DNA from: Dictyostelium discoideum | Lineage: Eukaryota | Assembly (NCBI GenBank): GCA_000004695.1 | Contig: CM000152.2 | Coordinates: 2,848,001 to 2,912,000 of the forward strand | Direction: 5' to 3' | Length of the DNA stretch: 64,000 nt | Shown: in pieces, positions 1 to 28,123 of the stretch | Position numbering within the stretch: position 1 is the first letter of the stretch | Layout: each line of letters opens with the position of its first letter | Notes under the pieces: model-generated | Database searches by the model: none | Seen by the model: the letters and a program-made list of their open reading frames with translations, nothing else | Told to the model about the DNA's origin: nothing | Program-made: the position numbers and the translations under genes

Positions 1-982
1 AAATAGTTGTACAAGTTTAAATAATGGTAAATGTAATTCAAATACAGGTGAATGTCAATGTAACGATAAATTTAGTGGTTTCGATTGTAGTACACCAATT
101 AAAATCATTGAAAGTGCACCACCAACAAATACATCAATCAATAAAGATACAGGAGGTATAGAACTTACCAATCAAGATACAATATATGAAATTTCAATTA
201 TATCATTAAATGAAATTTCAATTGATGGTTCAATTATTAAATCACATCAATTAAAAGGTAATTGGTCAAGCGATAATACAACAATAACACCAGATTCAAA
301 TTATTTCAAATTTTCACAACAATTAATTAATAATACATGTAAAATTACATTTACTATTGAAGAGATTAAATTAAAAGATAAGAGTTTTACATTTGGATCG
401 ACAACGTTTAAAGTTGAAAAAGATTCAATAAAATTATCAGTTTTAATTCAAGATTATCAATATCAAAGTTCATTAAATACATTACAATTAATATTTTATT
501 CAGCAGTTGGAAATGATTCAAATTCTAACAATGATGATTGTAATAAACAAGATACATCAATTGATACATCAAATGCAAATAATCAACAAATTTCAAATTA
601 TATTCAAATTTCTAAAAATTCAAAAACATTAGTCGGTCGTTTCATTAATCAAGTAATTGCAGATTCAAGATCAACTTTTATGTCAAGTACAATTATTAAA
701 GATAATGATAATAACTCATCGTCATCAGTTATGTTGGGATTAAATCTACCACATTGTAAAGAATGTTTAATTGATCCAGACTTTTCAGTATTGGTAAGTC
801 CAGATTTTAAAGAATCATGCAATGAATCAACAAATAAAAACAAATGGTTAATACCTGTCGTTGTCATTGTACCTGTAGTAGGTTGTGCTGTAATTGTTAC
901 TCTATCTATTGTTTTTTTTAAAAAATATAAATATAATTTAAAATTTATTGCAATCAAATTAAAACCATTTAAAAAGCAATAA
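1..982 (+). CDS. 3' portion (C-terminal ~327 aa) of an LRR/EGF/TIG-family type I membrane glycoprotein paralogue (copy 1); the 5' part lies outside the window
   Basis: The frame is open from the window start (codons begin at nt 2) to TAA at 980-982. The nucleotide sequence is near-identical to 4270-5250, 9370-10358 and 14010-15067. It shows an EGF-like Cys spacing (CPNSCTSLNNGKCNSNTGECQCNDKFSGFDCSTP), a hydrophobic TM segment WLIPVVVIVPVVGCAVIVTLSIVFF and a short basic tail. Confidence 0.85.
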   Translation, partial: NSCTSLNNGKCNSNTGECQCNDKFSGFDCSTPIKIIESAPPTNTSINKDTGGIELTNQDTIYEISIISLNEISIDGSIIKSHQLKGNWSSDNTTITPDSNYFKFSQQLINNTCKITFTIEEIKLKDKSFTFGSTTFKVEKDSIKLSVLIQDYQYQSSLNTLQLIFYSAVGNDSNSNNDDCNKQDTSIDTSNANNQQISNYIQISKNSKTLVGRFINQVIADSRSTFMSSTIIKDNDNNSSSSVMLGLNLPHCKECLIDPDFSVLVSPDFKESCNESTNKNKWLIPVVVIVPVVGCAVIVTLSIVFFKKYKYNLKFIAIKLKPFKKQ

Positions 983-1211
983 AATAAAAAAGAATTTTTC
1001 ACAATTTTAAAATTTATTGCAATCAAATTAAAACCATTTAAAAAAAAAAAAAAAAAAAAAAGAATTTATTATTTATTATGTTGGTGACTCTATAAACTTG
1101 ATTGTTTTGGAAAACCAAAAAAGCATGACCATTTAGAAAATGCAAATTTTATATTTTCACCAAATATTCACAAGATTCACTCAACATTTTAGATTATCAT
1201 TATAGTCACTA

Positions 1212-1259
<48 letters not shown>

Positions 1260-1428
1260 TGGAATCTAATCGATAAATCAAATTTTAATTTATATTAATA
1301 AATTTCTAAAAAGTAATTATTATAATTTTTATTCGTTTTAAAAAATTGAAAATGTGAGTAATCAAAAAAAAAAAAAAAAATCTGAAATAATCTTTAATTC
1401 AGAGAAAAACAATAAATATCCAAAATCG

Positions 1429-1459
<31 letters not shown>

Positions 1460-1524
1460 TTCCTTGCCCAAAATTTTTATTTTATTTTATATTTTTTTAT
1501 TTTTAGCAAAATATATTTTATATA

Positions 1525-1600
1525 ATGAAATTTCTTTTGATTTTATTTATTTCCTATTTTGTAATAAATGTTGTCAAGGGTCAATTAAATTTACAAGAGG
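1525..1600 (+). CDS. copy 2, exon 1 (signal peptide MKFLLILFISYFVINVVKGQLNLQE)
   Basis: ATG followed by a hydrophobic signal-like peptide, then a GTACG donor. The position and phase (1) match exon 1 of copies 3 and 4. Confidence 0.55.
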
Positions 1601-1704
1601 GTACGAAAAATAAAAAAATAAAAAAATAAAAAAAATTATTTATTACTCATCCTTTTTTATTTTTTTTTTTTTTTTTTTTCACACCCATCCACATCAATTA
1701 AAAG

Positions 1705-1810
1705 AACAATGCCTTGGTCAAATATTTTCAAATTTGGGTGTTAATATTCAAACATCAGATTATTGTTCATCAAATTATACAGGTTGTAATGGACAATTTG
1801 TTAGCGTTTT
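1705..1810 (+). CDS. copy 2, exon 2 (..CLGQIFSNLGVNIQTSDYCSSNYTGCNGQFVSVL)
   Basis: AAAAG acceptor and GTATGT donor. The translation aligns with exon 2 of copy 3 (CLDHLLSNLGINTV..GTFVSGL) and both end in phase 2. Confidence 0.5.
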
Positions 1811-1813
1811 GTA

Positions 1814-1860
<47 letters not shown>

Positions 1861-1938
1861 AGGAATAAAATTCCAAAAACTAATTATTTATTTAAATTAT
1901 TTGTTTAACTTCTTTTTAAATGTTTAATAAAAAAAAAG

Positions 1939-2232
1939 AAATATAAAATCATATACATCCACACACGAATTTTCTCAAGTTGATTTTCAATGTTTTTCAA
2001 AGGTTATATCAATTAGTATTTCAGATTTAAAAATTTCATCAACATTTTTAGAAGGACCATTCCCCACCGAAGTAGCACTCTCCTTTCACAATTGCTCTAC
2101 TACTTATAGTAATTTATTTTCAACAATAATCAATTCAAATATAACGTATTTGTCTTTTGATAGAATAGATCCACTTCAAATATCAAATACTGTTAATATC
2201 AAATTATCATACCTTAATAGAGCGTCAATTTT
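1939..2232 (+). CDS. copy 2, exon 3 (..VDFQCFSKVISISISDLKISSTFLEGPFP..)
   Basis: The frame is open and aligns with copy 3 exon 3 (SLDFQCFSKISQVTISNSNISSSFLRG..). GTAAGG donor. Confidence 0.5.
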
Positions 2233-2328
2233 GTAAGGTTTTTTTTTTTTTATATTTTATTTATTTTATTTATTAATTTATTTATTTATTTATTTATTTA
2301 TTTATTTTTTTAAAAAAAGTATTTTTAG

Positions 2329-2619
2329 TATTATAAAAGTAAGTTCATCATCTGATTATATCATATTGATTAATGATATCCCAGCTGGTAGTACGAAATC
2401 ATTTACTCAAATTGCAATGGATATTAAAGATTTACCACCAATGGATAATATTATTTTGAACGGTCTTAATATAAGAACTTTTAATTCACCTACTAGTAAA
2501 GGATACAGCAATATTCAAACTTTAAAATATATTACAAATTTCTATATTTTCATTAATCAAGGATATTCAGATTTTAGTGAATTTGCTTTAATTCCAAATC
2601 AAAATAACTTTAAAATAAT
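2329..2619 (+). CDS. copy 2, exon 4 (LINDIPAGSTKSFTQIAMDIKDLPPMDN..GYSDFSEFALIPNQNNFKI)
   Basis: Listed ORF 2366..2659. TTTTAG acceptor and GTATTT donor. It joins exon 5 in phase. Confidence 0.55.
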
Positions 2620-2702
2620 GTATTTATTATTATTTTTTAAAAAATCATTATTTATTTAATTTATATTAATAAAAATAAAAATAATAATAATATAATATAT
2701 AG

Positions 2703-5250
2703 ACAAATGGCAGGAAATTTATCACCAACACCAACTGGAATAATTGATTTAAGAAATTTATCAGGATTAAAACAATTAATATTATCGTTGGTTTCATCAG
2801 ATTTCAATTATCAAGGTCATATTCCACTTAATTTGCCACAAACAGTTAAAAATTTTCATATTTCCGATGGTTCATTTTCAGTTGGTGTAAAAGAGTTTTT
2901 GAATGCTTATCCGAATATCTCTATTGTTTCTATCCCAGGCAATCAAATTAACGCTAATTTTTCAGAATGGAAAAATAGAGGTTATGATCAATTTTCTATA
3001 AGTGAGAATAACTTTCAAGGAACTGTTGATTCATCATGGTGTACCACAATGACAACTTTATTAAAAAATAAATTGACAGGTGATTTACCATCATGTTTCG
3101 CTTGTCATTTGTATAATGAATATATTAATTTTACAGTATCTGAAAATCTTTTTAATCCTATTCTACCATGTACAACTTTAATACCAAATCTTAGATTCGA
3201 TTCATCAAGTAATATATTATATCTATATGGTGATGACTTGGGTTTCTATGAAACTGATATTAAAATAGTTTCATCACCAACAAAATCATTCAATCATTTA
3301 ATTTATTCAAAATTATTTTTTTGTGATAAATTTACTCAATCAAATTTACCAGAAATTTTAACTTTAGATTTTACAAGTGCAAATAAAACTTTTATATTAT
3401 CAACAGTTGAAAAACCACCATTAGTAGATTTAGTCACTGTTGCATCTTCATCTGCTTTATTATTTTTTGATGGATCATTTTTTAATTATAATAAATCATC
3501 AATTAAAATCAAAGTTGATGATTTAACATGTTTAATTACTCAAACTACATTTAATCAAACTAGTTGTCTAATTCAAGGATCATATAATAAGAATTCACTT
3601 GCTCAAATTACAATTACAGTAGAAAGTTATTATACAACTAAATTAAAAATATTACAAACAAACCTTTTTGCCTATTTAAATCAATCAACAACAGTTTATA
3701 GTTGTTCGTTGGATTGTAACTCACTTGGTGGTATTTGTAATACATTAATTGGTCAATGTTCATTTAATTGTCCAAATGATTGTACAAATTCTTTGGCAGG
3801 TACATGTAATAGTTCAACAGGAGTATGCAATTGTTATACTGATTTTCAAGGTTTAGATTGTTCATTACCATTTAAAGCTTGTACATCAGATTGTAGTTCA
3901 CCATTAAGTCAAGGTTCATGTAATAATCAAACTGGTATTTGTCAATGTATACCAAATTATCAAGGTTTAAATTGTAATATTCCATCACATTATATTACTT
4001 CAGTTATTCCATGTTCAATTGATGGTGGTGAAGTTTTAATTAATGGTTGGTTTGGTAATAATAATGATGGTACACATTTATTATCATCATATAATATAGT
4101 TATAGGTAGTTTAGATTGTATTGTTACATCAATTAATGAAACAGAAATTAAATGTAATCTTGGAGCAGGTACAGGTACAAAAAATATTAAAATTATAAAT
4201 TCAATTAATCCAAATGTAATTTTCAATGGTAATGGATTATTTAATTATCAAAATCCAATTAAAACTTGTCCAAATAGTTGTACAAGTTTAAATAATGGTA
4301 AATGTAATTCAAATACAGGTGAATGTCAATGTAACGATAAATTCATTGGTTTCGATTGTAGTACACCAATTAAAATCATTGAAAGTGCACCACCAACAAA
4401 TACATCAATCAATAAAGATACAGGAGGTATAGAACTTACCAATCAAGATACAATATATGAAATTTCAATTATATCATTAAATGAAATTTCAATTGATGGT
4501 TCAATTATAAAATCACATCAATTAAAAGGTAATTGGTCAAGCGATAATACAACAATAACACCAGATTCAAATTATTTCAAATTTTCACAAAAATTAATTA
4601 ATAATACATGTAAAATTACATTTACTATTGAAGAGATTAAATTAAAAGATAAGAACTTTACATTTGGAACGACAACGTTTAAAGTTGAAAAAGATTCAAT
4701 AAAATTATCAGTTTTAATTCAAGATTATCAATATCAAAGTTCATTAAATACATTACAATTAATATTTTATTCAGCAGTTGGAAATGATTCAAATTCTAAC
4801 AATGATGATTGTAATAAACAAGATACATCAATTGATACATCAAATGCAAATAATCAACAAATTTCAAATTATATTCAAATTTCTAAAAATTCAAAAACAT
4901 TAGTTGGTCGTTTCATTAATCAAGTAATTGCAGATTCAAGATCAACTTTTATGTCAAGTACAATTATTAAAGATAATAATAATAACTCATCGTCATCAGT
5001 TATGTTGGGATTAAATCTACCACATTGTAAAGAATGTTTAATTGATCCAGACTTTTCAGTATTAGTAAGTCCAGATTTTAAAGAATCATGCAATGAATCA
5101 ACAAATAAAAACAAATGGTTAATACCTGTCGTTGTCGTTGTACCTGTAGTAGGTTGTGCTGCAATTCTTACTCTATCTGTAGTTTTATATAAAAAATATA
5201 AATATAATTTAAAATTTATTGCAATCAAATTAAAACCATTTAAAGAATAA
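2703..5250 (+). CDS. copy 2, exon 5: LRR-like region, EGF-like modules, IPT/TIG-like domain, C-terminal domain, TM helix and short tail
   Basis: An 847-aa open frame (listed 2707..5250) preceded by an ATATATAG acceptor at 2701-2702. LRR-like NxLxGxLPxxxxxLxxL repeats. EGF-like CxxxCxxxxxGxCxxxxGxCxCxxxxxGxDC modules. A TIG-like segment (ITSVIPCSIDGGEVLINGWFGNN..NPNVIFNGNGLFNYQNP). TM segment WLIPVVVVVPVVGCAAILTLSVVLY. Confidence 0.9.
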
Positions 5251-5322
5251 AAAATAATTTTTTTTAAAATCGCTTGTGTTTGAAATTATCTATATCTGCC
5301 CTATATTTATGGGTCTTAGATA

Positions 5323-5358
<36 letters not shown>

Positions 5359-5583
5359 CCTATTTATGTTTTATCTAATTAAATGCCAAAATAAAATGGT
5401 GTGTTATTGTTGAAGGATTCAAAACCCCAAAAAAAAAAAAATAATAAAAAATCAGACTCTTTGAAAAACTGGGTCTCATTAGTAGGATGGCGTAACCCTT
5501 ATTTTTTTTTTATTTCTAAACTTAATTCTTCAATTTTTTTTATTACTTTCTGAATGTGCAACTATTTTTTATTTTTTTTAATG

Positions 5584-5616
<33 letters not shown>

Positions 5617-5957
5617 ATAAGAAATGGTTACATTTATTTTTTATGTCATTTTGTGTATTTTTGAAGGAGATTTCTATTTATCATACTAAATTCATATTAA
5701 AAATAAATAAAATTAAATTTTTGTTCAAAAAAAAATGAAAAATGAAAATATTTTTTTTTATTTCAAATGCCAATGTTTTTATCTTTTTAAATTTTCTTTT
5801 TTTATTTTTTTTTTTAAAAATAACGCCCTTTAAAATAAATTTCTTCAATTATTAAAAAAATCAACGTAAAAAGTTTTTTTTCATATAAATTTTTATTTTT
5901 TTTATTTTTTTTTTTTATTTTTTTTTTTTATTTTTTTTTATTTTTTTTTTTTTTTTG

Positions 5958-6050
5958 TTTTATTTTATTTTTTATTTTATTTTATTTTATTTTATTTTAT
6001 TTTATTTTATTTTATTTTATTTTATTTTATTTTATTTTATAATTAAAATT
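5958..6050. repeat. (ATTTT)n pentanucleotide microsatellite, ~18 units
   Basis: Direct reading of TTTTA/ATTTT units upstream of copy 3. Confidence 0.9.
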
Positions 6051-6260
6051 GGCAAATTAATATGAATATTCAATTTTTATGTAATATTTTTATTTTTCGT
6101 CGAATAATTTGATATTTATAGGTTCCGTTTGATTTCTCGTTTAAATTTTCTTTTTTTTTTCTATTTTTTTTTTTTGGGATTGAAAATCTAAAAAATTATT
6201 TTTTTATAAAAAAAAAAAAAAACGATGATTTTTCATTAAGCAAACAACCAAAAAGTCGTG

Positions 6261-6345
6261 ATGATCAAATTTTTTACCATTTTAATTATATATTCTTTGT
6301 TGTTATTAAATTTTACCAAAGGTTCGACATTAGAGGACAGTGAAA
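6261..6345 (+). CDS. copy 3, exon 1 (signal peptide MIKFFTILIIYSLLLLNFTKGSTLEDSE)
   Basis: ATG at 6261 (the ORF track starts at GTG 6258). Hydrophobic N-terminus. GTATGA donor, phase 1 as in copy 2. Confidence 0.55.
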
Positions 6346-6397
6346 GTATGAATAAAAAAAAAAAAAAAAAAAAAAGAAAATTCACAATACTAAATAT

Positions 6398-6430
<33 letters not shown>

Positions 6431-6443
6431 GATCACAAAAAAG

Positions 6444-6558
6444 AAATATGCTTAGATCATCTTTTATCAAATTTAGGAATAAATACTGTTATAGATTGTT
6501 TAAATAGTAATATTGTAGTATGTTCTACAAATAACCTAGGGACATTTGTTAGTGGTTT
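6444..6558 (+). CDS. copy 3, exon 2
   Basis: AAAAAG acceptor and GTAAGA donor. The peptide KICLDHLLSNLGINTVIDCLNSNIVVCSTNNLGTFVSGL is homologous to copy 2 exon 2. Confidence 0.5.
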
Positions 6559-6667
6559 GTAAGAATGAATAAAAAAATAAAAAAAAAATAAAAAAAAAAA
6601 ATAATTCTATTAACATTTAATTTTTTATTACATTTTATTTAATTATTTATTTTATTTTATTTAATTT

Positions 6668-6721
6668 TGTTTTATTTTATTTTATTTTATTTTATTTTAT
6701 TTTATTTTATTTTATTTTATT
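6668..6721. repeat. (ATTTT)n microsatellite in intron 2 of copy 3
   Basis: Direct reading. A second array of the same pentamer is also seen at 5958-6050. Confidence 0.85.
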
Positions 6722-6727
6722 TATTAG

Positions 6728-7012
6728 AGTTTTAAAATCAAACAATAATGCATACCAAATTTCTTCACTTGATTTTCAATGTTTTTCTAAGATTTCACAA
6801 GTTACTATTTCAAATTCAAATATTTCATCATCTTTTTTAAGAGGAAATACAACCATTGAATTCATTTCTTTTTCTAATAATACCATCGAATATAATGAAT
6901 TATTTTCATCACAAATTAATACAAAATTAAAAAATGTTTTTATTACTAATATACCACCACCAAATTCTCAAATTAATATTAATTTTTCAATAATTGCTTC
7001 CTTATCAAATTT
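6728..7012 (+). CDS. copy 3, exon 3
   Basis: TTATTAG acceptor and GTAAGT donor. The frame is open and aligns with copy 2 exon 3. Confidence 0.5.
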
Positions 7013-7055
7013 GTAAGTTTTTTTTTTTTTTTTTTTTAATTTTTAATTCTTATTA

Positions 7056-7059
<4 letters not shown>

Positions 7060-7149
<90 letters not shown>
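7060..7149. repeat. (ATT)n trinucleotide microsatellite, ~30 perfect units, in intron 3 of copy 3
   Basis: Direct reading. Confidence 0.9.
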
Positions 7150-7198
7150 CATTTTTATTAATATTATTTAATTAATTAAAATTGTTTTTTAAAAAAAG

Positions 7199-7496
7199 AC
7201 AATTTCAATTGAATACTTGGGGTGAGAATAGTAGATATATATCATTGATTAATGATTTTCCAGTTGGAGGAATGCGTCCAATCCCAAGTTTAGCAATGGA
7301 TCTTAAAGATATACCACCCATGGATAATGTTAAATGTGGAAGTGTTACTTTTAGAGCCTACGATTCACCTTCAGCTTTGGTTTTAGCATTTCCTAACATT
7401 AAAAAATATAAATTCAATTTATTTATACATTGCAAGAGGAACTTCAGATTTTACCCAATTTAGTTTAATTCCAAATGATAATTTTATATATACAAT
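7199..7496 (+). CDS. copy 3, exon 4 with an internal frame change near 7420-7440 (possible pseudogene lesion)
   Basis: One frame (listed ORF 7182..7463) matches copy 2 exon 4 for about 80 codons and then hits TAG at 7464. The last ~20 codons (GTSDFTQFSLIPNDNFIYT) match copy 2 only in the +1 frame. That +1 frame is the one that splices in phase to exon 5. Confidence 0.45.
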
Positions 7497-7506
7497 GTAT
7501 GTTTTT

Positions 7507-7519
7507 ATTATTATTATTA

Positions 7520-7597
<78 letters not shown>

Positions 7598-7618
7598 TAT
7601 TATTTATTATTATTATTT
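7507..7618. repeat. (TTA)n/(TAT)n microsatellite in intron 4 of copy 3
   Basis: Direct reading. It produces the spurious poly-Y ORF 7495..7704. Confidence 0.85.
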
Positions 7619-7684
7619 TTATTATTAAAAAAGAACTAATTTATAATATTATTTTTTTTTTTTTTATTTTAAAAAAAAAAAAAG

Positions 7685-10358
7685 ATTCTTTAATGGAGCT
7701 TTGATTTCACCATCTATTGTTGATTTAAGAAATTTAACTATATTAAATTATATTGATTTAAGAAATGTTATTTTAGATTTTAATTATCAAGGTAAAATTC
7801 CTCTTATTCTTCCTCAAAGTGTTACTAGTCTTGGTATTAGTGGAAGTTCTTTTTCTAGTGTTAATGAATTTATAGGAAATTATCCAAGAATTTCAACGAT
7901 TGCAATTTCTTTTAATCAAATTCCAGATAATTTTACAGAATGGAGAAATAGAGGTTATGCATCATTTGATGTAAATAATAATAAACTTCAAGGAACTATT
8001 GATTCGTCATGGTGTACTACTGTTTTAAAGATTGGTGATAATCAATTATCAGGTAAATTACCTTCTTGTTATACTTGTCATTTATTAAGTGATTATGTTA
8101 AATTTATGATTATTGGTGGTAAAAATTCATTTACAAATGTAGATCCAATACCAGAATGTACAACTTTAATACCAAACCTTAGATATAATTCCTCAACAAA
8201 AGAACTCACTCTATATGGTGATGATTTAGGTTTTTATACTGAAAATGTTATAGTACCAGGTTTTGATTATTCATTTTCTCCAAAGATTCAATCGAAATTA
8301 TTTGTAGCTAGTAATGTAATTCAATATGATTTACCCCAGATTTTAAATTTTAAATTTCCAGGAGCAAATAAAACATTTACATTATCAACAATTCAAAAAC
8401 CACCCATTATAAATACAGTAATAGCAACGGTTCAATCCTATTCTGTTATTTTAGAAGGATCATTTTTCAACTATAATATATCATCAATTGAAATCTTTAT
8501 TGGTGATGTTCAATGTTCAATAGTGTCTGCAACATTTTATAAAGTTGAATGTTTAACATTTGAAACATATGAGAAAAATATAATTGGAAAAGTTTCAATT
8601 AATATTAAAGATTATTACTATAGCAATTTAACAATATTAGAAACATCTGTAATTGCATATTTAAATCAAACTACACAAATTAAAAATTGTCAATTAGATT
8701 GTATCTCACTTGGTGGTTTTTGTAATACATTAATTGGTCAATGTAATATTGATTGTCCAAATAATTGTACTGGTTCATTATCAGGTACTTGTGAAAGATC
8801 AACAGGAGTTTGTATTTGTAATATTGGTTATCAAGGTATTGATTGTTCAGTACCAATTCATTCTTGTCCCTCAAATTGTAATGCTCAATCCAATCAAGGT
8901 ACATGTAATTATCAAAATGGTATTTGTCAATGTTCTCCAAATTATCAAGGTTTAGATTGTTCATTACCATTTAAAGTTTGTACATCAGATTGTAGTTCAC
9001 CATTAAATCAAGGTTCATGTAATAATCAAACTGGTATTTGTCAATGTATACCAAATTATCAAGGTTCAAATTGTAATATTCCATCACATTATATTACATC
9101 AGTTATTCCATGTTCAATTGATGGTGGTGAAGTTTTAATTAATGGTTGGTTTGGTAATAATAATGATGGTACAAATTTACTATCATCATATAATATTGTT
9201 ATAGGTAGTTTAGATTGTATTGTTACATCAATTAATGAAACAGAAATTAAATGTAATCTTGGAGCAGGTACAGGTACAAAAAATATTAAAATTATAAATT
9301 CAATTAATCCAAATGTAATTTTCAATGGTAATGGATTATTTAATTATCAAAATCCAATTAAAACTTGTCCAAATAGTTGTACAAGTTTAAATAATGGTAA
9401 ATGTAATTCAAATACAGGTGAATGTCAATGTAGTGATAAATTTAGTGGTTTCGATTGTAGTACTCCAATTACAATCATTGAAAGTGCACCACCAACAAAT
9501 ACATCAATCAATAAAGATACAGGAGGTATAGAACTTACCAATCAAGATACAATCTATGAAATTTCAATTATATCATTAAATGAAATTTCAATTGATGGTT
9601 CAATTATAAAATCACATCAATTAAAAGGTAATTGGTCAAGTGATAATACAACAATAACACCAGATTCAAATTATTTCAAATTTTCACAAAAACTAATTAA
9701 TAATACATGTAAAATTACATTCACTATTGAAGAGATTAAATTAAGAGATAAGAGTTTTACATTTGGAACAACAACGTTTAAAGTTGAAAAAGATTCAATA
9801 AAATTATCAGTTTTAATTCAAGATTATCAATATCAAAGTTCATTAAATACATTACAATTAATATTTTATTCAGCGGTTGGAGATGATACAAATTCAAATT
9901 CAAATAATGATTGTAATAAACAAGATACATCAATTGATACATCAAATGCAAATAATCAACAAATTTCAAATTATATTCAAATTTCTAAAAATTCAAAAAC
10001 ATTAGTCGGTCGTTTCATTAATCAAGTAATTGCAGATTCAAGATCAACTTTTATGTCAAGTACAATTATTAAAGATAATAATAAATCATCTTCATCATCA
10101 TCATCATCATCAGTTATGTTGGGACTAAATCTACCACATTGCAAAGAATGTTTAATTGATCCAGACTTTTCTGTATTAGTAAGTCCAGATTTTAAAGAAT
10201 CATGCAATGAATCAACAAATAAAAACAAATGGTTAATACCTGTCGTTGTCGTTGTACCTGTAGTAGGTTGTGCTGTAATTGCTACTATATCTATACTAAT
10301 GTATAGAAAGAATAGATATAGAATACAGCTTCTCAAACTAAGAACTTTTAAAAAATAA
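7685..10358 (+). CDS. copy 3, exon 5: LRR-like, five EGF-like modules, TIG-like, TM
   Basis: An 885-aa open frame (the track starts at TTG 7701). AAAG acceptor at 7683-7684. The 3' ~1.4 kb is near-identical to copy 2 and the 5' part is diverged. It carries a (TCA)n Ser expansion at ~10087-10110. Confidence 0.85.
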
Positions 10359-11637
10359 AAAAATAAAATAGAAAAAATTTGAAAGTATGGTCCATTTTGG
10401 ATTTTACTTTTTTTTTTTAATGATAATTTTTTTAAATCTCGAAAGACAACCAATTCCAAATGGAAAAATAAAATCTAAACCTAAATTAATTTATAAATTA
10501 ATTTCTTTTAAATAACAATAATAATTTAAAGACAAAAAAAAAAGTTATTTTTAATAAAAAAAAAAGAGAAAATAAATATTATTTATAAAGTTTTTTTTTT
10601 TTTTTATTTTTTTTTTTATTTCCTATGCGGCTCTCCTTTGTTTTTGAAAATGAAATTATTTTTTTTTTTTTAATTATTTAAATGGTAATAAAAATAAAGA
10701 AAAATAAAAAAAAAAAATTACTAGGAGTAGTAGTACCCAGCTATCTCAAATACAAAGCAACATCATACCGCTACTATTACTATCATTATCATTATTATTG
10801 CCATTACCACCATTACCACTACCACACTATTATTACATTATTATTACCATACCACCATTATTATTATTATTACTACTACTATTAACATTACCACATTATT
10901 ATTATTACCACGATTATTACTATTACCATTATCATCAGCAATATATAAAAAAAAAAGATTCAATAGACTGACATATAGAATTTTCAATTTTGTACTGTTG
11001 TTCCAATTCTTGTCTCAGTTTCAATTTACAAATGTTCAATCACAGTAGAAATTATTTGGTACATGCCTTTATCGTTTTCTATCTTTTTCTTTTTCTTTTT
11101 TTTGTTGTTCTCTATGTTTTTCATTCTCTTTTTCGCAATGCTGTTGAAGATGATGGTGATGATGTTTATCCTCTGATCTAATTATTATTATTATTATTAT
11201 TTTTATTGGGAAAGGTTATGGTTGTTGATTTTGTTGGTGTTATTATTATAGATGCTTCTTTATTACTACTACTAAACCTTCATTTTTACTGGTTGTTTTT
11301 AATTAAAACAAAAAGAAAAGAAAAGAAAAAATAAAAAAATAATAAGTTTTGGATTGTTGTTTGGTTTTTTTTTTTTTTTTTTTTTTTTCCAAAAACCCAT
11401 TAAAAAATTTTTCCACCCCCCAAATTTTTTTAATTATTTGAAAAGTTTAATAGTTTTGGTATTTGATGTCTAGTTTTAATTTTTTGTTTTTTTTTATCTT
11501 AGGATAATAAAAAAAAAAAAATAAGAAATAAAAAAAAAAAAAAAAGAATGGATGTTGTTGTTTTTTTTTTTTTATTTTCACAAAAATAGCATTCATATAA
11601 TTTTTTTTATTTAATTGTTTAGCTCTTTGAAAGAACA

Positions 11638-11713
11638 ATGACAAAATTAATTACAATATTAATATTTTTTTTTTTATTATTTAATGTTATTAAAAGTTCT
11701 TCAACTGACCAAA
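11638..11713 (+). CDS. copy 4, exon 1 (signal peptide MTKLITILIFFFLLFNVIKSSSTDQ)
   Basis: ATG with a hydrophobic peptide, then a GTATGT donor, phase 1. Confidence 0.55.
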
Positions 11714-11805
11714 GTATGTAGGAAAAAAAAAATAAAAAAATAAAAAACAAAAAAAAAAAAAACTTATATTTAAAAACTTTTTTTTTTTTTTTCATATTTA
11801 TTAAG

Positions 11806-11923
11806 ATTGCTTGAATACTCTTAAAAATCAATTAAATGTAAAAGAATGTATAATTTGCCAAAAGGAAAATTGCATAAATACATTTGAATCATGTATTTCT
11901 GGTGATGAGGAAAATTTAAGTGT
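11806..11923 (+). CDS. copy 4, exon 2 (Cys-rich NCLNTLKNQLNVKECIICQKENCINTFESCISGDEENLS)
   Basis: TTAAG acceptor and GTAGGT donor. It ends in phase 2 like exon 2 of the other copies. Confidence 0.45.
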
Positions 11924-12060
11924 GTAGGTTTAAATTAATAAATAAAATAAATAAAAAAATAAATAAAAAAAAAATAAAAAAAAAAAAAATAAATAAATAA
12001 ATAAATAAATTAATAAATTATTATTATCACTAATTTTTGAAAATGTAATTTTTTTAATAG

Positions 12061-14328
12061 ATTCTTAGACCAAATTCCAATTGATAGATTTGATCCTACA
12101 TGTTTTAAAAAGGTCAAAGAATTAACCATAAAAAACTTGAATTTTACAGAGTATTTGGATTCATTCAATGGTACATCTATTTCACTTATTGATTGTACTT
12201 ATGATAATTTAAATTCAATTAAGCATAATAAGATATATTTAACACATCTAAATATTACTAATTTAAAAACACAAGAGATTGGGGATATTGCTATTAATTT
12301 TATTAAAACCTTAATAGGATTTAAATCTATTTCTTATTTTTCATTTACTTTCAGTAATATTATCGGGGATTTCTCTGAATTCACGGCCGTGTTGGAAAAT
12401 TTAGAAATTAAAAGTTTTGAAATAAATAATAATCAACTTGTTGGAACTATTAATTCATCATGGTGTAATACCCTTTTAAAAATTAATAATAACAAGTTAT
12501 CCGGTGAATTACCATCTTGTTTTACATGTCATATTTATAGTGATTACGTTAAAAGTATGATTATTACTGGAAATAAATTTACAAATGAAAATCCAATAGC
12601 AGATTGTAAAACTTTAAAACCAAACCTTTTTTATAATTCCACTAGTCGCGAACTGTATCTCTATGGTAAAGATTTAGGTTTTATATCTGATGATATTAAA
12701 AATGATAAATATACTTTCAATTTAGAGAAACCTTCGAAATTATTTATAGCAACTAATGTAAATGAATCAGATTTACCAAAATATTTAAATATTACCTTTT
12801 CAGGAGCAAAAAAAGAATTTTCATTATCTACAACCAAAATAGCACCAATTGTATCCTCGATAACAATTTCAGAAATATTAGATTCAATAACCTTTACTGG
12901 AACAAATTTAAATGATCCACCACCAATTTCAATCTTGATTGGTGATAAAAATTACACAGACCTAAATTTTAATTTTAATCAAGTCCAATGTAAAATTCAA
13001 AGATTAAGTTATGATGATGATTTTGTAATCGTTAAAATTATTAATGGAGATGATTTTTACAAATTCAGTACTACTATATATACATATATAAACCAAAGCA
13101 TACAAGTTGATTATTGTTCAAAAGTTTGTAAAAAACTTGATGATGGTGTTTGCATTAAAATAAAAGAATATTGTGGTGGTGGAAATATAATATCAAATTC
13201 TTGTACTTCTTCAACAGCAGGCGGTTGTAATTGTTCAAATGATTTTCAAAATTCTTTTTGTTCCTATATACCTTGTCCTATGGATTGTAATTCTGAATCT
13301 AACCAAGGTATATGTAATTATCAAACTGGTAAATGTGAATGCCTACCATATTACCAAGGTCTGGATTGCTCTTTACCAAATAAACCCTGTAATACCAATT
13401 GTAGTTTTGATTCCGATCAAGGTAAATGTAATACTCAAACTGGTAATTGTGAATGCTCACCAAATTTCCAAGGTAAAAATTGTGAATTACCATTAAAATA
13501 TTGTTCATCAGACTGTAGTGCACCATTAAATAAAGGTTTTTGTAATGATCAAACTGGTATTTGTCAATGTTTTCCAAATTATCAAGGTTCAGATTGTTCT
13601 TTACCATTAAAAGTTTGTACATCAGATTGTAGTTTCGATTTAAATCAAGGCTGGTGTAATAATCAAACTGGTACTTGTCAATGTAAACCAAATTATCAAG
13701 GTTCGGATTGTAAAACTCCATCACATTATATTACATCAGTTATTCCATGTTCAATTGATGGTGGTGAAGTTTTAATTAATGGTTGGTTTGGTAATAATAA
13801 TGATGGTACAAATTTACTATCATCATATAATATTGTTATAGGTAGTTTAGATTGTATTGTTACATCAATTAATGAAACAGAAATTAAATGTAATCTTGGA
13901 GCAGGTACCGGTACAAAAAATATTAAAATTATAAATTCAATTAATCCAAATGTAATTTTCAATGGTAATGGATTATTTAATTATCAAAATCCAATTAAAA
14001 CTTGTCCAAATAGTTGTACAAGTTTAAATAATGGTAACTGTAATTCAAATACAGGTGAATGTCAATGTAATGATAAATTTAGAGGTTTCGATTGTAGTAC
14101 ACCAATTAAAATCATTGAAAGTGCACCATCAACAAATACATCAATCAATAAAGAAACAGGAGGTATAGAACTTACCAATCAAGATACAATATATGAAATT
14201 TCAATTATATCATTAAATGAAATTTCAATTGATGGTTCAATTATAAAATCATATCAATTAAAAGACAATTGGTCAATTTATAATATAAATGATGAATCAA
14301 CAACAAAAAGAACAACAACAACAAAAAG

Positions 14329-14380
<52 letters not shown>

Positions 14381-15067
14381 GATTTCAATAATATATTCAT
14401 GTTTTCACAAAAATTAATTAATAATACATGTAAAATTACTTATACCATAGAAGAGATTAAATTAAAAGATAAGAACTTTACATTTGGAACAACAACGTTT
14501 AAAGTTGAAAAAGATTCAATAAAATTATCAGTTTTAATTCAAGATTATCAATATCAAAGTTCATTAAATACATTACAATTAATATTTTATTCAGCAGTTG
14601 GAAATGATTCAAATTCTAACAATGATGATTGTAATAAACAAGATACATCAATTGATACATCAAATGCAAATAATCAACAAATTTCAAATTATATTCAAAT
14701 TTCTAAAAATTCAAAAACATTAGTCGGTCGTTTCATTAATCAAGTCATTGCAGATTCAAGATCAACTTTTATGTCAAGTACAATTATTAAAGATAATGTA
14801 AAATCATCATCAATTATGTTAGGATTAAATCTACCACATTGTAAAGAATGTTTAATTGATCCAGACTTTTCAGTTTTGGTTAGTCCAGATTTTAAAGAAT
14901 CATGTAATGAATCAACAAATAAGAACAAATGGTTTATACCAGTCATTGTCGTTGCACCTGTGGTAGGTTGTGCTGCAATTCTTACTCTATCTATTGTTTT
15001 GTATAGAAAGAACAAATATAACATTAAAATTGCTTCTGAAAAATTAAAATCTTTGAAAAGGAAATAA
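12061..15067 (+). CDS. copy 4, exon 3: the equivalents of exons 3-5 fused (no introns), seven EGF-like modules, TIG-like, poly-Thr insert, TM
   Basis: TTTAATAG acceptor at 12059-12060. The frame is open through the listed 976-aa ORF (12137..15067). An (ACA)n tract at 14290-14380 encodes TTKRTTTTKRT(T)17. The C-terminal ~350 aa are near-identical to the other copies. Confidence 0.85.
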
Positions 15068-16347
15068 TCAAAAAAAAAAAAAAAATATGAAAAGACAACA
15101 AATTCCAAATGTTGGAAAAATAAAATCCAAACCTCAAATTAAATTTTAAATTTAAACAAATAATTTAAAAACGAAAAAAATAAAATTATTTTTCACTAAA
15201 AAAAAAAAAAAAAAATAGAAAATAAATATTTATTTGCAAAGGTTTAAAGTTGGTTTTGATTTTTTTTTTTTTTTTTTTTTTTTACTTTTGATTTTTTTAT
15301 TTTCTATGAGGCTCTCCTTGAAAATGAAATTATTTATTTAAATGGACAATAAAAAAATAATTTAAAAAAAGTTTGGAAACAAATCCAATTATAGATTGCG
15401 ATGTTTTAAATTTATTCTTCAAATAAACCATATAGAGTTGAAAAGATTGTTACAGATTTACCATTTGTGTGATAACAATGAGTTGCGTCAATCAACTTTA
15501 GAACGTAGATTTCATTCTATAGGGTGGCTTGTTGAGATTTTGTTTATTTATTTTTCTTTTTATTTTTAATATTATTATTATTTATAATTTATTATTTAAT
15601 ATTTAATTTTTTTTTTTTTTTTATTTTATTTTTTTTATTTATTATTTATTATTTATTATTTAATATTTATTATGTATTTGTTATTAGTATTAGTTTTAAA
15701 CTAAATATTTAGATCTAAAAATACATACCATTTATGATGAGTTTATTAATTATTTAAATAATTTGTTGAATAGATTGATAAAATTATTTAATGTTATTGG
15801 AAAATATTTATTTATAAGTTTCTTATTAAATAAGTCAAAGGAGATAAAACGAATAATGATATGATGGACATATTGTGGTGGATTGTTTAATAAAAAATTG
15901 AAATTGTTTTCAAATAATATTTTAATAATTAAAATGATATTATTGAAATGACTATTTTTTATTGTTATTTTATCTGTACTGATAGAATCCTTTACTGGGA
16001 AATATCTCTTCACCTTTTTTGTACTGGTTATATATACCATTCTAATATTATATATTGATGTAATACATATAAAAAAAAAATTGAATAGACACACAGTAAA
16101 TAGTGTAAGTTGTTTTGAAAAATTTAAATTTAAATTAATTGTTTTTTTTTTTTTTTTGATTTCCCATGATAAAGACATGTGTTTATACATACTTACTTTA
16201 AATATAAAAAAATTATTATTTTCCTCAAAATGCACAATATTTTTTTTAAAAAAGAGAAAATAAATATTTATTTACAAAGTTTTTTACTTTTTTGTTCTTG
16301 AAAACGATATTATTTACAAAGGATTAAAGTGGTCTTGATTGATTTGA

Positions 16348-17495
16348 TTAAAATTCTTTTAAATTTTTACAAAGAGTACAACCTAAAATAAATTCTTCGA
16401 CATGAGGATGATCAACCTTAAGGGGACATTTATCAGGACCTTCACATCGAGGGATTTCGGTTTTGGGTATTTTGTTGAGGTACTTTCCGCCATTTTGAAT
16501 AGCGTGGCATTGGGAACAGAAGTGCGTCTTGCTCCAGCAATACCATTGAGCTATTGAACAACAAAACTGACATTTCCATATGATATAGTCCCAACCATGT
16601 ACTTTACATTCTTTTCCATCACTTCCCCTACAAGAACCACAAATTAAGTCTTCATCTTTGTAACCACCTTCTACACCTTCATCACAACGTGCTTGACCAG
16701 CAAAATAAAAACCTTTACATTTAAAGCAACTATAGTACACATATCTATCCATTGAGTAATTTTCAGGATCTTGATACCACTTTGAGTTTTTATCTTGAAT
16801 CTCTTTACATTTTGCTAAACCTTCATATGATAATCTTTCCATTGCTTTTGATTGAATGATTGCTTTATTCTTTAAGATTGGTTCTAAAATATGATTAATT
16901 GCAGGATGAGATTTCATTTGTTTCTTACATAGTGGACAATCTATATGATGAAAAGTAATTCTAGGACCTGTTTTACTTGTTAATTGTTTTTCAATACAAC
17001 CATAATGAAACATATGACCACAATCTAACATTATTGATGGAGCTGATTTAATTGAATCAACAAAGCAAATATTACAATATCCATCATTATTGAAATGTCC
17101 CTTTGGTACACAATCTACATCAAAACATGGTTCACATTTTTTCTCACCTTTAACACCAATACAATAATGACCACATGATAATTGTTTATCACAACAATTG
17201 TCCAATTTTTCTTTACATTCTTCAGAATCACAAATTTCACTTTGTTTTAAATTAATTCCAAAAGTTACTTTAATAGGTGATAAACAAAATCTACATTTTC
17301 TAGAATTTAAATATTCTGTATACTTTTCACAAGTATAAGAATAATGATAAGGTGAAGTTTTACAATCTGAACAAAATTCTGTTGTACAATTTGTACATCT
17401 AAATCTAAATTCTTCTCTATGTCTTGCTGATTCTTCATTCATTGTTGTACCATCAGGTGATAATAAATTTAATTTATTTCTTTTTTTTATTAAAT

Positions 17496-17526
<31 letters not shown>

Positions 17527-18174
17527 AGTTGTTGTTGTATTTGTATTATTATTATTATTTAAAGAATTTGAAGAATAATTTGAATTTGAAGAAGTTGATA
17601 ATAATGAAGTTATTGAAGTAAATGAAGAATTTGATAATGAATTTGATAAAGATTGTGGTAATGGTGAAGTTGAAGCTGAAGTTGTAGCTGTTGTATTTGC
17701 AGAAGATATTAAAGGTGGTGATAATGGTGGTTGTTGAATTCTTTCAAAAACTTCTTGACAATTTGGACATTTAATAAAGTTATCATTGTTATGAAGTACT
17801 TGTTCCAATTGTTTATTTAAAAGTTGTTCATACTCTGAATCATTTAATACCATTCGAATCATTGTATCTTGAATTTTTTCATTGCAATCCACATGGATAC
17901 AATGTATTTGACCCAATGATGATCCTTCATCCATTTGATCATTAATTTGATTGAGTATACCATTCTTTAAACATGATTTACAAAAATTATGTAAACAATC
18001 ATCCATTAAAAATAAATAATCTGGTTGTGTTTCAAAATTCTTTTTACATATAATACAATGTGATAACATATCTTGATCACGATTTGAATCTTCTTCTTCT
18101 TCTCCTTCACTTAATAACATTCTTAAAACTTCTGGATCAATTGATCCATTTAATTCAAAATTTGTTTGTTGATA

Positions 18175-18210
<36 letters not shown>

Positions 18211-18416
18211 ATTATAATTATAATTATAATTATTTTCGTAAAAAACATTACTTGAACCACTACTTTTACAAGATGAGGAAGAAGTTGTTGTTGTTGTTGT
18301 CGTTGTCGTTTGAAATGGATTATAGTATCCATTATTTTTTATATTATTATTTATATTATTATTATTATTATTGAAATTATAATTATTATTATAATTACTA
18401 TTTATATTATTTAAAC

Positions 18417-18506
<90 letters not shown>

Positions 18507-21174: not shown

Positions 21175-21205
<31 letters not shown>

Positions 21206-21745: not shown

Positions 21746-21787
<42 letters not shown>

Positions 21788-21876
21788 AAAATATTCTTAA
21801 AATTATTATATATTTTTGGTGTTTAATAAAGTAAGAATTTTGGGTTTATGGATTTTTTTTTTTTGGTAATCAGAAA

Positions 21877-21913
<37 letters not shown>

Positions 21914-22033
21914 TAATTAATCGTATATATATATATATATTTTTTTTTGAATCATCTCACAATTTGAATCATTTATTAATTAATGTTTTAAAAAACAAAA
22001 ACAAGATGAATAAAAAAAAAAAAAAAAAAATTG

Positions 22034-28089: not shown

Positions 28090-28113
28090 CTTTGTCTAAG
28101 TTGGGAAGACCCC

Positions 28114-28119: not shown

Positions 28120-28123
28120 TATA

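Follow-up and report, generated by a model that had tools for sequence, protein, structure and literature searches.

Tgr proteins of Dictyostelium are characterised by ectodomains with multiple IPT/TIG domains. In tomato, the Cf-4/Cf-9 (Hcr9) genes are tandemly arranged LRR receptor-like protein (LRR-RLP) genes with near-identical C-terminal halves, the N-terminal LRRs of which vary through exchange between paralogues. In the vertebrate TLR cluster, the ligand-binding LRRs diverge, but conversion keeps the membrane-proximal and intracellular portions alike. The TLR1/TLR6/TLR10 members of that cluster are tandem LRR receptors that have undergone both duplication and gene conversion (PMC3125219). 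tgrB1 and tgrC1 are a divergently transcribed pair sharing one promoter, and the active tgr pair is located in a structurally hypervariable locus of 104–250 kb (PMC12745789). The gene comC, identified in a screen for communication mutants, is developmentally essential and its mutant aggregates aberrantly (PMC2873529, table 1; PMC4931340, table 3).

The locus described here lies on chromosome 3 of D. discoideum AX4, and the window (the whole stretch of 64,000 nucleotides that was analysed) carries one ComC-family 3' end and three complete genes. As originally predicted, four same-strand paralogues (A, B, C and D) are present within 15 kb, at positions 1–15100 (Table 1). A long-read AX4-like assembly, 99.7% identical to the window, contains the full copy A and an additional copy A0 upstream of the window, bringing the array to five copies. 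The part of copy A inside the window comprises its last 326 codons (2–979; stop codon 980–982), encoding the post-TIG EGF, the ComC supersandwich domain, the transmembrane (TM) helix and the tail, and is 97.3% identical to positions 4272–5262 of copy B; the remainder is found upstream of the window. Copy B consists of the exons 1525–1600, 1705–1810, 1939–2232, 2320–2619 and 2703–5247, followed by the stop codon, and the ORF 2707–5250 is 100% identical to DDB_G0280003. Copy C is annotated in AX4 as a protein of 1032 amino acids (exons 6348–6397, 6728–7012, 7199–7230, 7439–7496 and 7685–10355), the ORF 7701–10358 being 100% identical to DDB_G0280029. The intact copy C of AX2-like and other genomes has 1138–1139 amino acids, adding roughly 6428–6559 and 7203–7500; in the AX4 reference, the two single-base deletions shift the frame of its LRR-coding exon, and the tblastn HSPs switch frame there (7203–7412 and 7375–7500). 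The approximate exons of copy D are 11638–11718, 11805–11924 and 12062–15067. The array has five copies in AX4/AX2-like genomes, at least five in ACTFIR, four in ACTFIW, at least four in both ACTFIZ and citrinum, and two in firmibasis, with flanks that are syntenic across isolates.

Table 1. Coordinates in the window of the array copies and of features within them.
Feature	Position	Strand	Basis
Copy A, 3' end only	2..982	+	frame-2 translation
Copy B, DDB_G0280003, 1107 aa	1525..5250	+	exact spliced match to AX4 protein
Homogenised tract, copy B	3847..5161	+	two-breakpoint likelihood fit; earlier left edge 3861
Copy C, DDB_G0280029	6348..10358	+	protein identity, tblastn, spliced reconstruction
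Two single-base deletions, AX4 reference copy C	7378..7387	+	alignment with long-read AX4-like assembly
Homogenised tract, copy C	8946..10275	+	two-breakpoint likelihood fit; earlier left edge 8951
Copy D	11638..15067	+	tblastn, ORF, ATG and signal peptide at 11638, Pfam ComC_SSD and EGF
Homogenised tract, copy D	13583(13541)..14993(14975)	+	two-breakpoint likelihood fit; earlier left edge 13590
Thr-rich segment, copy D supersandwich domain, INDESTTKRTTTTKR(T)17DFNN	14285..14392	+	

The products of the array genes are all type I membrane glycoproteins that have a single TM helix and end in a basic tail of ~20 residues. The layout is a signal peptide, a ComC-type LRR solenoid, two β-sandwiches and a variable set of EGF modules (the head), followed by TIG, EGF and supersandwich domains, the TM helix and the tail. 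The LRR/EGF/TIG architecture proposed from the sequence was confirmed by Pfam, with scores of 200 bits for ComC_SSD (cut-off 24) and 67 bits for LRR_ComC (cut-off 27), additional matches to EGF_2, and a single TIG at 21.5 against a cut-off of 20.9 bits, which it reached only as an isolated fragment. In copy B, LRR_ComC, EGF_2, TIG and ComC_SSD were all recognised, while the head of copy D, the most divergent one, remained below the LRR_ComC threshold in the Pfam scan. Canonical EGF motifs number three in A0, A and B, four in C and six in D, plus one degenerate Cys-rich unit in each; the variation in EGF number noted previously is thus real, although the figures of 3, 5 and 7 should read 3/4/6 or 4/5/7. 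Copy D is further distinguished by its own tail type and by an insertion of ~27 codons (~14289–14365) within its Thr-rich segment, probably a mucin-like O-glycosylation stretch. The AF2 model of copy B (mean pLDDT 81.5) places the TM helix at 1066–1090. Foldseek searches matched the head to BRI1, ERL1, FLS2, RXEG1, InlA and TLR1/2, and the supersandwich region to GLMP, YidC-P1 and glycoside-phosphorylase domains. Relatives of the TIG-EGF-supersandwich module amount to 154 representatives of 50%-identity clusters at E ≤ 1e-30.

Alignment of the copies demonstrated a tract of ~1.3 kb, located wholly within the large last exon and sharply bounded on both sides inside that exon. In copy B, the EGF immediately before the TIG, the TIG itself, the EGF after it, the supersandwich domain, the juxtamembrane region and the TM helix up to its middle all fall inside the tract; in copy A, it occupies roughly the first 890 positions of the window. 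The left edge, close to where the identity step had been predicted, falls in the tandem EGF repeats, where the EGF number also varies. Ungapped identity within the tract is 97.3% for B–C and about 98% for A–B, in agreement with the ~97% originally proposed, but 93.5–94% for pairs with D, whose tract is interrupted by the poly-Thr insert. Upstream, identity in the big exon drops to 55–67% at the nucleotide level, not the ~80% that had been estimated, and to 34–51% at the amino acid level. The tail does not belong to the near-identical part, as had been assumed: the tract ends before the stop codon, and the last ~70–90 nt, encoding the C-terminal half of the TM helix and the cytoplasmic tail, are only 65–69% identical (about 65–70% over the last ~85 nt) and type-specific. 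In the two-breakpoint fit, B and C differ at 2.7% of sites inside the tract, 33% to its left and 31% to its right. Chance is excluded by the contrast of 33% with 2.7% across blocks of about 1200 nt, by runs tests on polymorphic sites (p ≤ 0.0005–0.02) and by perfectly identical runs of 173–254 bp between every copy pair; runs of 233–254 bp are shared by copy D (14492–14745) with A and B.

It is clear that the array evolves in two modes, with a converted tract on the one hand and a head and tail that escape on the other. Synonymous divergence (Nei–Gojobori/Jukes–Cantor dS; absolute values are rough since third positions are ~90–95% A/T) between paralogues is 0.45–0.84 in the head, where alignments with copy D are poor (34% amino acid identity), and 0.02–0.14 in the tract. 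For B versus C it is 0.62 in the head, 0.087 in the tract (about 7-fold lower) and 0.21 in the tail, and for the firmibasis pair 0.605 in the head against 0.022 in the tract. In neighbour-joining (NJ) trees of five genomes, based on all sites and on third codon positions, the tract groups by genome, and head and tail by gene type. Bootstrap support in the head was 98–100% for the C-type clade, 100% for the D-type clade and 0% for genome clades, and 96–100% for type clades in the tail; in the tract it was 100% for citrinum, 100% for firmibasis, 72% for ACTFIZ (98% with third positions) and 96% for AX4+ACTFIR, type clades receiving 0%. This strongly supported discordance points to recurrent interlocus gene conversion, as does the dS drop, and bears out the earlier idea that the membrane-proximal module is homogenised while the distal ectodomain diverges; two-breakpoint fits, runs tests and identical runs all favour exchange. 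The sub-blocks that hold the identical runs change from one pair of copies to the next, which indicates a mosaic built up by separate conversion events. Inside the tract, copy D remains paired with its ACTFIR orthologue, so D has taken part in conversion longer ago or less often. As for the A/B-type copies, duplication within individual lineages, instead of conversion, could account for their clustering by genome. A signature of GC-biased conversion was not found, GC3 being 0.05–0.07 in the tract and 0.07–0.15 in the head.

Within one genome, a sharp boundary on the left could also arise if one unequal crossover or one segmental duplication had joined a single 3' half to differing 5' halves, and tandem EGF repeats, in which that boundary lies, favour misaligned recombination. 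Such a one-off origin is nevertheless improbable, as a crossover would have homogenised the genes to their 3' ends, whereas the tract has an edge on either side and the tails remain type-specific; moreover, homogenisation took place independently after the lineages of firmibasis, citrinum, ACTFIZ and AX4/ACTFIR had split, with heads and tails keeping their orthology, and the perfectly identical sub-blocks differ by copy pair. Even less can be said for stronger purifying selection or codon constraint on the module without any exchange. The tract is indeed the more constrained at the protein level (dN/dS 0.12–0.38, below that of the head), but protein selection cannot reduce synonymous divergence 5- to 25-fold, nor can selection make third-position trees group by genome, and this reading is already contradicted. 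In addition, paralogues within AX4 are closer than orthologues in the TIG segment (dS 0.046 versus 0.116), GC3 differs only slightly between the modules, and synonymous sites of the tract are not conserved across species (orthologue dS 0.09–0.33). An assembly artefact, with collapse or cross-polishing of near-identical repeats in the reference, is hardly credible: the AX4 reference does differ from the long-read AX4-like assembly in homopolymer lengths and in two 1-bp indels in copy C, but the copies differ by 2–6% within the tract, with copy-specific indels, and the structure is alike in the Sanger-era AX4 reference and five independent long-read assemblies, the division into tract and head being repeated in independent assemblies.

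The original prediction also suggested a candidate polymorphic recognition system like tgrB1/tgrC1. In such a kin- or self-recognition system the variable heads would determine the allotype and be subject to diversifying or balancing selection. Several features agree with this: the distal ectodomain of these surface glycoproteins evolves fast (head dN/dS 0.45–0.8 against about 0.18 in the flanking gene), copy number differs between isolates, the founding member comC is developmentally essential with aberrant aggregation in the mutant (PMC2873529, PMC4931340), and head amino acid identity between discoideum-clade isolates, 68–93%, overlaps the 80–90% of curated tgrB1 (PMC12745789). Silent divergence between AX4 and another isolate, however, is 0.07–0.16 in the array and 0.14–0.19 in the flanking RING gene, and the compared isolates are diverged genome-wide, as seen in the exoc2 control and reported previously (PMC12745789); hence there is no locus-specific excess of polymorphism. 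Head dN/dS is elevated, with 0.45–0.7 for single orthologue pairs and 0.67–0.81 for pooled segments against 0.28–0.49 for pooled orthologues of the TIG, post-TIG EGF and supersandwich domain, but all reliable comparisons of orthologues gave values below 1. The architecture is of the ComC type rather than the multi-TIG Tgr type, divergent pairs are absent from the same-strand tandem, and the family goes unmentioned in a 2025 study that examined recognition genes in multiple genomes. The single expression record, for DDB_G0280003, lists it among genes whose expression drops rapidly once cells have starved in suspension for 4 h, a timing unlike that of a multicellular-stage recognition gene. The array genes are not mentioned in any paper found by our literature search, in which no ligand, partner or phenotype was recorded. 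A Tgr-like recognition locus is therefore unlikely, and the evidence does not favour a recognition role over other ligand-binding roles.

A five-gene ComC-family array with conversion of the tract and proposed separate roles for head and stalk is, in our view, very probably the correct account. Through interlocus gene conversion, neighbouring copies have overwritten the tract again and again, which explains its identity of 94–98% within a genome. The LRR/β-sandwich/variable-EGF head, as well as the downstream half of the TM helix and the tail, escape conversion between gene types and have diverged into three old types (A/B, C and D) that can be recognised across species, and the young A0, A and B copies have additionally been homogenised or duplicated over their whole length. 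The functional half of this account is drawn from fold analogy only: the variable LRR head may be the ligand-binding part, with the three head types binding different ligands, and the common TIG-EGF-supersandwich stalk may serve as a structural or partner-docking module. Exchange between copies of such a common module would be tolerated or favoured, and the shortness of the tail would make a co-receptor necessary for signalling, in the manner of receptor-like proteins.

The array thus represents a clean, though not unprecedented, case of domain-restricted gene conversion. Judged by the Pfam domains that define the ComC family (LRR_ComC PF24141, Beta-sand_ComC_1st/2nd PF24142/PF24143 and ComC_SSD PF22933), it shares with ComC the order of LRR_ComC, β-sandwiches, EGF repeats, supersandwich domain and TM helix; comC, however, is a single gene from a developmental communication screen, whereas the array members lack gene names. 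TgrB1/TgrC1 and the array proteins are alike in being glycoproteins of the Dictyostelium cell surface that contain Ig-like (TIG) folds and are encoded on chromosome 3. The array further shares gene-family turnover and intergenic recombination with the tgr family (PMC12745789), but it is a same-strand tandem of ComC-type genes with syntenic flanks and no excess silent polymorphism. Like TLR1/TLR6/TLR10, it comprises tandem type I receptors with LRR ectodomains, domain-restricted homogenisation and a divergent region corresponding to the ligand-binding one, and TLR1/TLR2 are among the structural matches of the head; unlike TLRs, the array proteins carry no TIR or other signalling domain on their tail of about 20 residues, the converted module (TIG-EGF-supersandwich) is extracellular, and the tail escapes conversion. 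Compared with Cf-4/Cf-9, sequence homology is limited to the LRR fold, plant RLPs lack the EGF/TIG/supersandwich stalk domains, and a pathogen or prey ligand is not evidenced for the array proteins. The two systems nevertheless share the tandem arrangement, exchange between paralogues, a head of variable LRRs next to a membrane-proximal half that is conserved, and a cytoplasmic tail so short that a co-receptor is implied; the plant LRR ectodomains BRI1, ERL1, FLS2 and RXEG1 are among the best structural matches of the array head.

The open reading frame at 7701–10358 was found to be 100% identical to DDB_G0280029 of D. discoideum AX4, and that at 2707–5250 to form part of DDB_G0280003; the sole annotation of both is "EGF-like domain-containing protein". 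Mapping of the proteins back to the DNA, which in this window has a G+C content of about 20%, yielded four paralogues, copies A to D, all on the plus strand and arranged head to tail; the model of copy B, with its four introns, was obtained by recursive spliced matching. The long-read assembly of an AX4-like strain (L001), 99.73% identical to window positions 1–15252, contains copy A complete, upstream of the window, and a further copy, A0, preceding it, so that the array comprises five genes. Judged by synteny with other isolates, the array is flanked by a gene for ribosomal protein L18 on one side and by a C2/RING gene on the other.

Features of the window, in window positions, with the fitted tracts and identical runs of the array
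Feature	Position	Strand	Remarks
Copy A	2–979	+	last 326 codons only; unnamed gene
Copy B	1525–1600, 1705–1810, 1939–2232, 2320–2619, 2703–5247	+	exons; DDB_G0280003
Copy C	6348–10358	+	DDB_G0280029
Copy D	ATG at 11638, big exon to 15067	+	unnamed gene
Homogeneous tract, copy B	3847–5161	+	two-breakpoint fit
Homogeneous tract, copy C	8946–10275	+	two-breakpoint fit
Homogeneous tract, copy D	13583(13541)–14993(14975)	+	two-breakpoint fit
Identical run, B–C	4099–4333		
Identical run, B–D	4672–4904		
Identical run, C–D	9080–9271		
C2/RING gene	16348–18894	-	array flank
Non-LTR retrotransposon, full-length	ORF1 26622–27872; ORF2 22918–26517	-	RVT_1 domain in ORF2
tRNA-Arg(ACG)	28124–28197	-	retrotransposon directly downstream
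Second reverse-transcriptase ORF, truncated	28298–30034	+	directly upstream of tRNA-Arg(ACG)
Poly-Q/poly-N ORF, 773 aa	34872–37193	+	
PP2C-like phosphatase	38853–40403	+	ordinary neighbour
FNIP-repeat protein	47929–49545	-	ordinary neighbour
Exocyst subunit 2 (exoc2)	55738–58284	+	ordinary neighbour

These proteins belong to a family that is already named and curated in Pfam, the ComC family; it is a large one, with 154 representatives at 50% identity found at E ≤ 1e-30. The ComC supersandwich domain (PF22933) lies beside the membrane and was matched with E-values of 8e-60 (B), 4e-59 (C) and 1e-53 (D), corresponding to 183–203 bits against the Pfam cut-off of 24. At the N-terminal side, the whole LRR_ComC profile (PF24141, positions 1–288 of 288) aligned with residues 76–383 of DDB_G0280003 at 66.8 bits (cut-off 27) and scored 54.5 bits in P0002, an intact C-type protein; the Pfam profile search gave no significant LRR_ComC match in the D-type head. 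The ComC β-sandwich families PF24142 and PF24143 were weak in copy B (13.9 and 20.4 bits, under the cut-off of 27), PF24143 reached 30.4 bits in the close relative P0017, and β-sandwich strands occupy residues 421–583 in the structural model of DDB_G0280003. Each protein has 3–5 stretches matching EGF_2, and canonical EGF motifs (C-x-C...G..C) number three in each of A0, A and B, four in C and six in D. A TIG domain was detected at 21.5 bits, against a cut-off of 20.9, in a fragment scanned in isolation; a second TIG-like sandwich fell below the Pfam threshold. The LRR/EGF/TIG architecture proposed in the original prediction is thus borne out by the profile matches.

The AlphaFold2 model of DDB_G0280003, built from 51 homologues, has a mean pLDDT of 81.5, with most of the LRR part above 90, and runs from a signal helix (residues 2–16) through an LRR solenoid, β-sandwiches, small EGF units and more sandwiches to a TM helix (residues 1066–1090). 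The array proteins thus have the make-up of type I membrane proteins, with a signal peptide, EGF repeats and one C-terminal TM helix. Foldseek searches of the PDB, taken as evidence of fold class only, matched the head with plexin ectodomains, the plant LRR receptors BRI1, ERL1, FLS2 and RXEG1, internalin A and TLR1/2, and the supersandwich region with GLMP, the YidC periplasmic domain and the supersandwich domains of glycoside phosphorylases; the length and multi-domain make-up of the query kept the TM-scores low. The comC gene itself is developmentally essential, came from a communication-mutant screen and causes aberrant aggregation when mutated, and its product is described with EGF domains, a signal peptide and a TM segment (PMC4931340, table 3; PMC2873529, table 1). 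The literature search found no paper naming DDB_G0280003, DDB_G0280029 or the neighbouring identifiers, none of the open papers joined comC with lagC, and the array genes are not listed in the supplements of Glöckner 2016.

The homogeneous tract was delimited by fitting a two-breakpoint likelihood model to the codon-aligned window copies. Copies B and C differ by 33% to its left, 2.7% inside and 31% to its right; the corresponding values are 45%, 6.1% and 35% for B and D, and 40%, 6.5% and 31% for C and D. The tract starts at the junction of the penultimate and last pre-TIG EGF modules, the EGF count varying at this left edge, and extends through the last pre-TIG EGF, TIG domain, post-TIG EGF and supersandwich domain to half-way along the TM helix. 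The left edges given in the original prediction lay at most 15 nt from the fitted ones, and its right edges overshot, since homogenisation spares the cytoplasmic tail and the C-terminal half of the TM helix. The tails are of three types, reading ...KKYKYNLKFIAIKLKPFK in A0, A and B, ...YRKNRYRIQLLKLRTFKK in C and ...YRKNKYNIKIASEKLKSLKRK in D. When the 3′ intergenic DNA was compared between copies, A–B homology ended about 12 bp from the stop codon and the 3′ flanks of C and D shared low-complexity similarity only, so conversion does not reach intergenic DNA.

The supersandwich domain of copy D holds a Thr-rich insert (14285–14392; TTKRTTTTKR, then 17 Thr), which neither the remaining copies nor the D orthologue of the isolate ACTFIR have. 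In copy A, the last ~37 nt of the coding sequence (935–975), encoding the tail KFIAIKLKPFK, are duplicated in the 3′ UTR (1004–1044), the second copy sitting just past the stop codon.

The results for the internal tract together amount to the signatures by which recurrent interlocus gene conversion is defined. Between B and C of AX4, Nei–Gojobori estimates were dS 0.62 and dN 0.41 in the head, 0.087 and 0.021 in the tract, and 0.21 and 0.23 in the TM segment and tail; between two copies of D. firmibasis, dS was 0.605 in the head versus 0.022 in the tract. Such a 7- to 25-fold drop in synonymous divergence is not producible by constraint at the protein level. Neighbour-joining trees of 18 last exons from five genomes (AX4-like, ACTFIR, ACTFIZ, D. 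citrinum and D. firmibasis), computed with 200 bootstraps and also on third positions only, grouped the heads by gene type (C type 98–100%, D type 100%, genome clades 0%) and the tails likewise (96–100%), heads and tails both being old and type-specific. The tract grouped by genome (citrinum 100%, firmibasis 100%, ACTFIZ 72%, or 98% on third positions, AX4 with ACTFIR 96%, type clades 0%). Within the TIG segment, dS was 0.046 among AX4 paralogues versus 0.116 for orthologues between isolates. Furthermore, a Sawyer-type runs test on polymorphic sites was significant for every pair (p ≤ 0.0005–0.02), and every pair shares perfectly identical runs of 173–254 bp in a sub-block that differs by pair, indicating a mosaic of separate events.

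Homogenisation by a single unequal crossover is excluded by the orthology of the tails and by its recurrence after lineage splits, and an assembly artefact by the existence of copy-specific differences and of six independent assemblies. Converted DNA is commonly, though not obligatorily, enriched in GC; no such enrichment was seen here, GC3 being 0.05–0.07 in the tract versus 0.07–0.15 in the head. Both the sharp identity step and the conversion of the membrane-proximal module, as originally proposed, are supported by the breakpoints, the fall in dS, the trees and the runs.

Inside the tract, copy D clusters with its ACTFIR orthologue, so D exchanges less often. The heads of A0, A and B are 86–94% identical, and these copies group by genome along their whole length, which could reflect lineage-specific duplication or whole-gene conversion. 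The array holds 5 copies in the AX4-like genome, at least 5 in ACTFIR, 4 in ACTFIW, at least 4 in each of ACTFIZ and citrinum, and 2 in firmibasis; since copy number varies in this way, it is also under birth and death. In ACTFIZ (L003 20918–23089), a ubiquitin-like gene and then the L18 gene come after the array; in firmibasis (L005) and ACTFIW (L006), L18 lies upstream of it and the C2/RING gene downstream. This difference in gene order suggests a local inversion or rearrangement adjoining the array. In ACTFIW (L006 5763–22763), the reading frames of three of the four copies are interrupted, with split ORFs at 7885–9573, 11243–12229/12213–13736 and 19825–21978. These reflect either pseudogenisation or residual long-read errors and, the two being indistinguishable, the ACTFIW copies were excluded from codon analyses.

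At copy C, the AX4 reference is without two single bases (7378 and 7387) that are present in L001; the LRR exon of DDB_G0280029 is frameshifted as a result. The annotated AX4 protein has 1032 aa and an odd N-terminus, 7231–7438 being treated as an intron; in other assemblies the gene encodes 1138–1139 aa. Either the reference contains a sequencing error here or the gene is a pseudogene specific to the strain; in the AX4 reference, DDB_G0280029 probably has a wrong or frameshifted model. Homopolymer lengths also differ between the reference and L001, at 1215 (12 T), 1429 (2 T), 1817 (10 A), 6399 (2 T) and 10591 (2 T), all in intergenic and intronic DNA, and are likely sequencing-technology artefacts in one assembly.

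Elsewhere in the window, the layout of retrotransposon sequences around the tRNA gene (22918–30034) looks like the classic tRNA-targeted TRE3/TRE5 arrangement. The retrotransposon explains the G+C of 0.35–0.41 and the strong skew at 22–30 kb, and the poly-Q/poly-N ORF the extreme negative GC skew at 34–38 kb.

A further proposal, that the array is a polymorphic recognition locus of the Tgr kind, found no support: there is no silent excess, no reliable dN/dS above 1, and neither the arrangement nor the domains of Tgr. The non-AX4 assemblies stem from a 2025 study whose isolates were picked deliberately, as tropical "discoideum" diverged from AX4 (possible cryptic species) and as sister species (PMC12745789). 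Nucleotide differences from AX4 across the locus amount to about 10% in ACTFIR and ACTFIW. The flanking RING gene has a dS of 0.14–0.19 and a dN of 0.03 between AX4 and ACTFIR, and exoc2, 40 kb off, shows 95% identity in ACTFIW versus 97% for AX4's annotated protein with the same intron-read-through query. By these controls, and by the account in PMC12745789, the isolates are diverged genome-wide, and polymorphism specific to the locus is therefore not demonstrable from them. Between AX4 and ACTFIR, which are diverged lineages and not one population, no silent excess over the flank was seen.

In this comparison the head has dS 0.07–0.16, dN 0.03–0.10 and dN/dS 0.45–0.69 per pair (0.67–0.81 pooled by segment), and the tract dS 0.09–0.15, dN 0.013–0.05 and dN/dS 0.12–0.35 per pair. 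At the protein level the head thus evolves at one to three times the rate of the flank, and the constraint on it is relaxed or in part diversifying. In reliable comparisons, pairwise and segment-pooled, dN/dS was not clearly above 1; values of 1.09–1.14 were limited to the very low-dS pair CIT_2/CIT_3 and the saturated C–D head alignment.

The Tgr ectodomain consists mainly of several IPT/TIG domains, whereas the array copies have one borderline TIG and are dominated by ComC-specific domains. The genes tgrB1 and tgrC1 are paired and divergent with one shared promoter (PMC12745789), unlike the array copies with their common orientation. A Tgr-type locus would be expected to exceed the genomic background in polymorphism by far; the AX4–ACTFIR dS of the array orthologues (0.07–0.16) compares with 0.14–0.19 in the flank. 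DDB_G0280003 is among the genes whose expression falls fast, starting at 4 h of starvation, in cAMP-pulsed suspension (Rosengarten et al. 2015, additional file 7), by our own column assignment of its tab-separated row and with the caveat that reads from the common tract can multi-map; this list is the sole expression record found for the array genes. A recognition role is possible but unsupported, and the findings fit a role in growth or early starvation, e.g. in binding ligands from prey or substrate, at least as well.

Receptor genes in tandem arrays are well known to undergo partial gene conversion. Among Dictyostelium surface-protein families, recombination has been described for the tgr genes (PMC12745789). 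What is new is the documentation of the array itself and its clean three-zone structure, a well-bounded social-amoeba case of domain-restricted concerted evolution with at least five long-read genomes for comparison. It separates what is free to diversify in a ComC-family receptor, namely the LRR head, the EGF number and the tail, from the stalk (the TIG-EGF-supersandwich module) that is kept uniform, and thus lays out concretely how experiments could be designed on a large Dictyostelium surface-protein family, one related to a developmental communication gene. Short-read expression estimates and variant calls for these genes will be confounded by the 1.3 kb tract, as it is nearly identical between copies.

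Ligands would presumably be bound by the LRR head and differ among the three head types, while the common stalk may be a structural or partner-binding module whose uniformity is tolerated or favoured; tails of about 20 residues would imply a partner protein for signalling. In design, the array comes closest to the tomato Cf-4/Cf-9 receptor-like protein clusters and the vertebrate TLR1/6/10 cluster (PMC3125219). A bolder reading, which we regard as rather improbable, is that the array is a diversifying LRR receptor-like repertoire, in which the three old head types and young lineage-specific variants bind different external ligands and the conversion-maintained stalk keeps the copies compatible with one co-receptor. 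Candidate ligands would then be molecules of bacterial prey or pathogens, or the surfaces of other amoebae. Were this repertoire reading true, it would sit in a family whose founder, ComC, acts in cell–cell communication, and would give the amoebozoa their own version of the plant Cf-9-type or vertebrate TLR1/6-type design.
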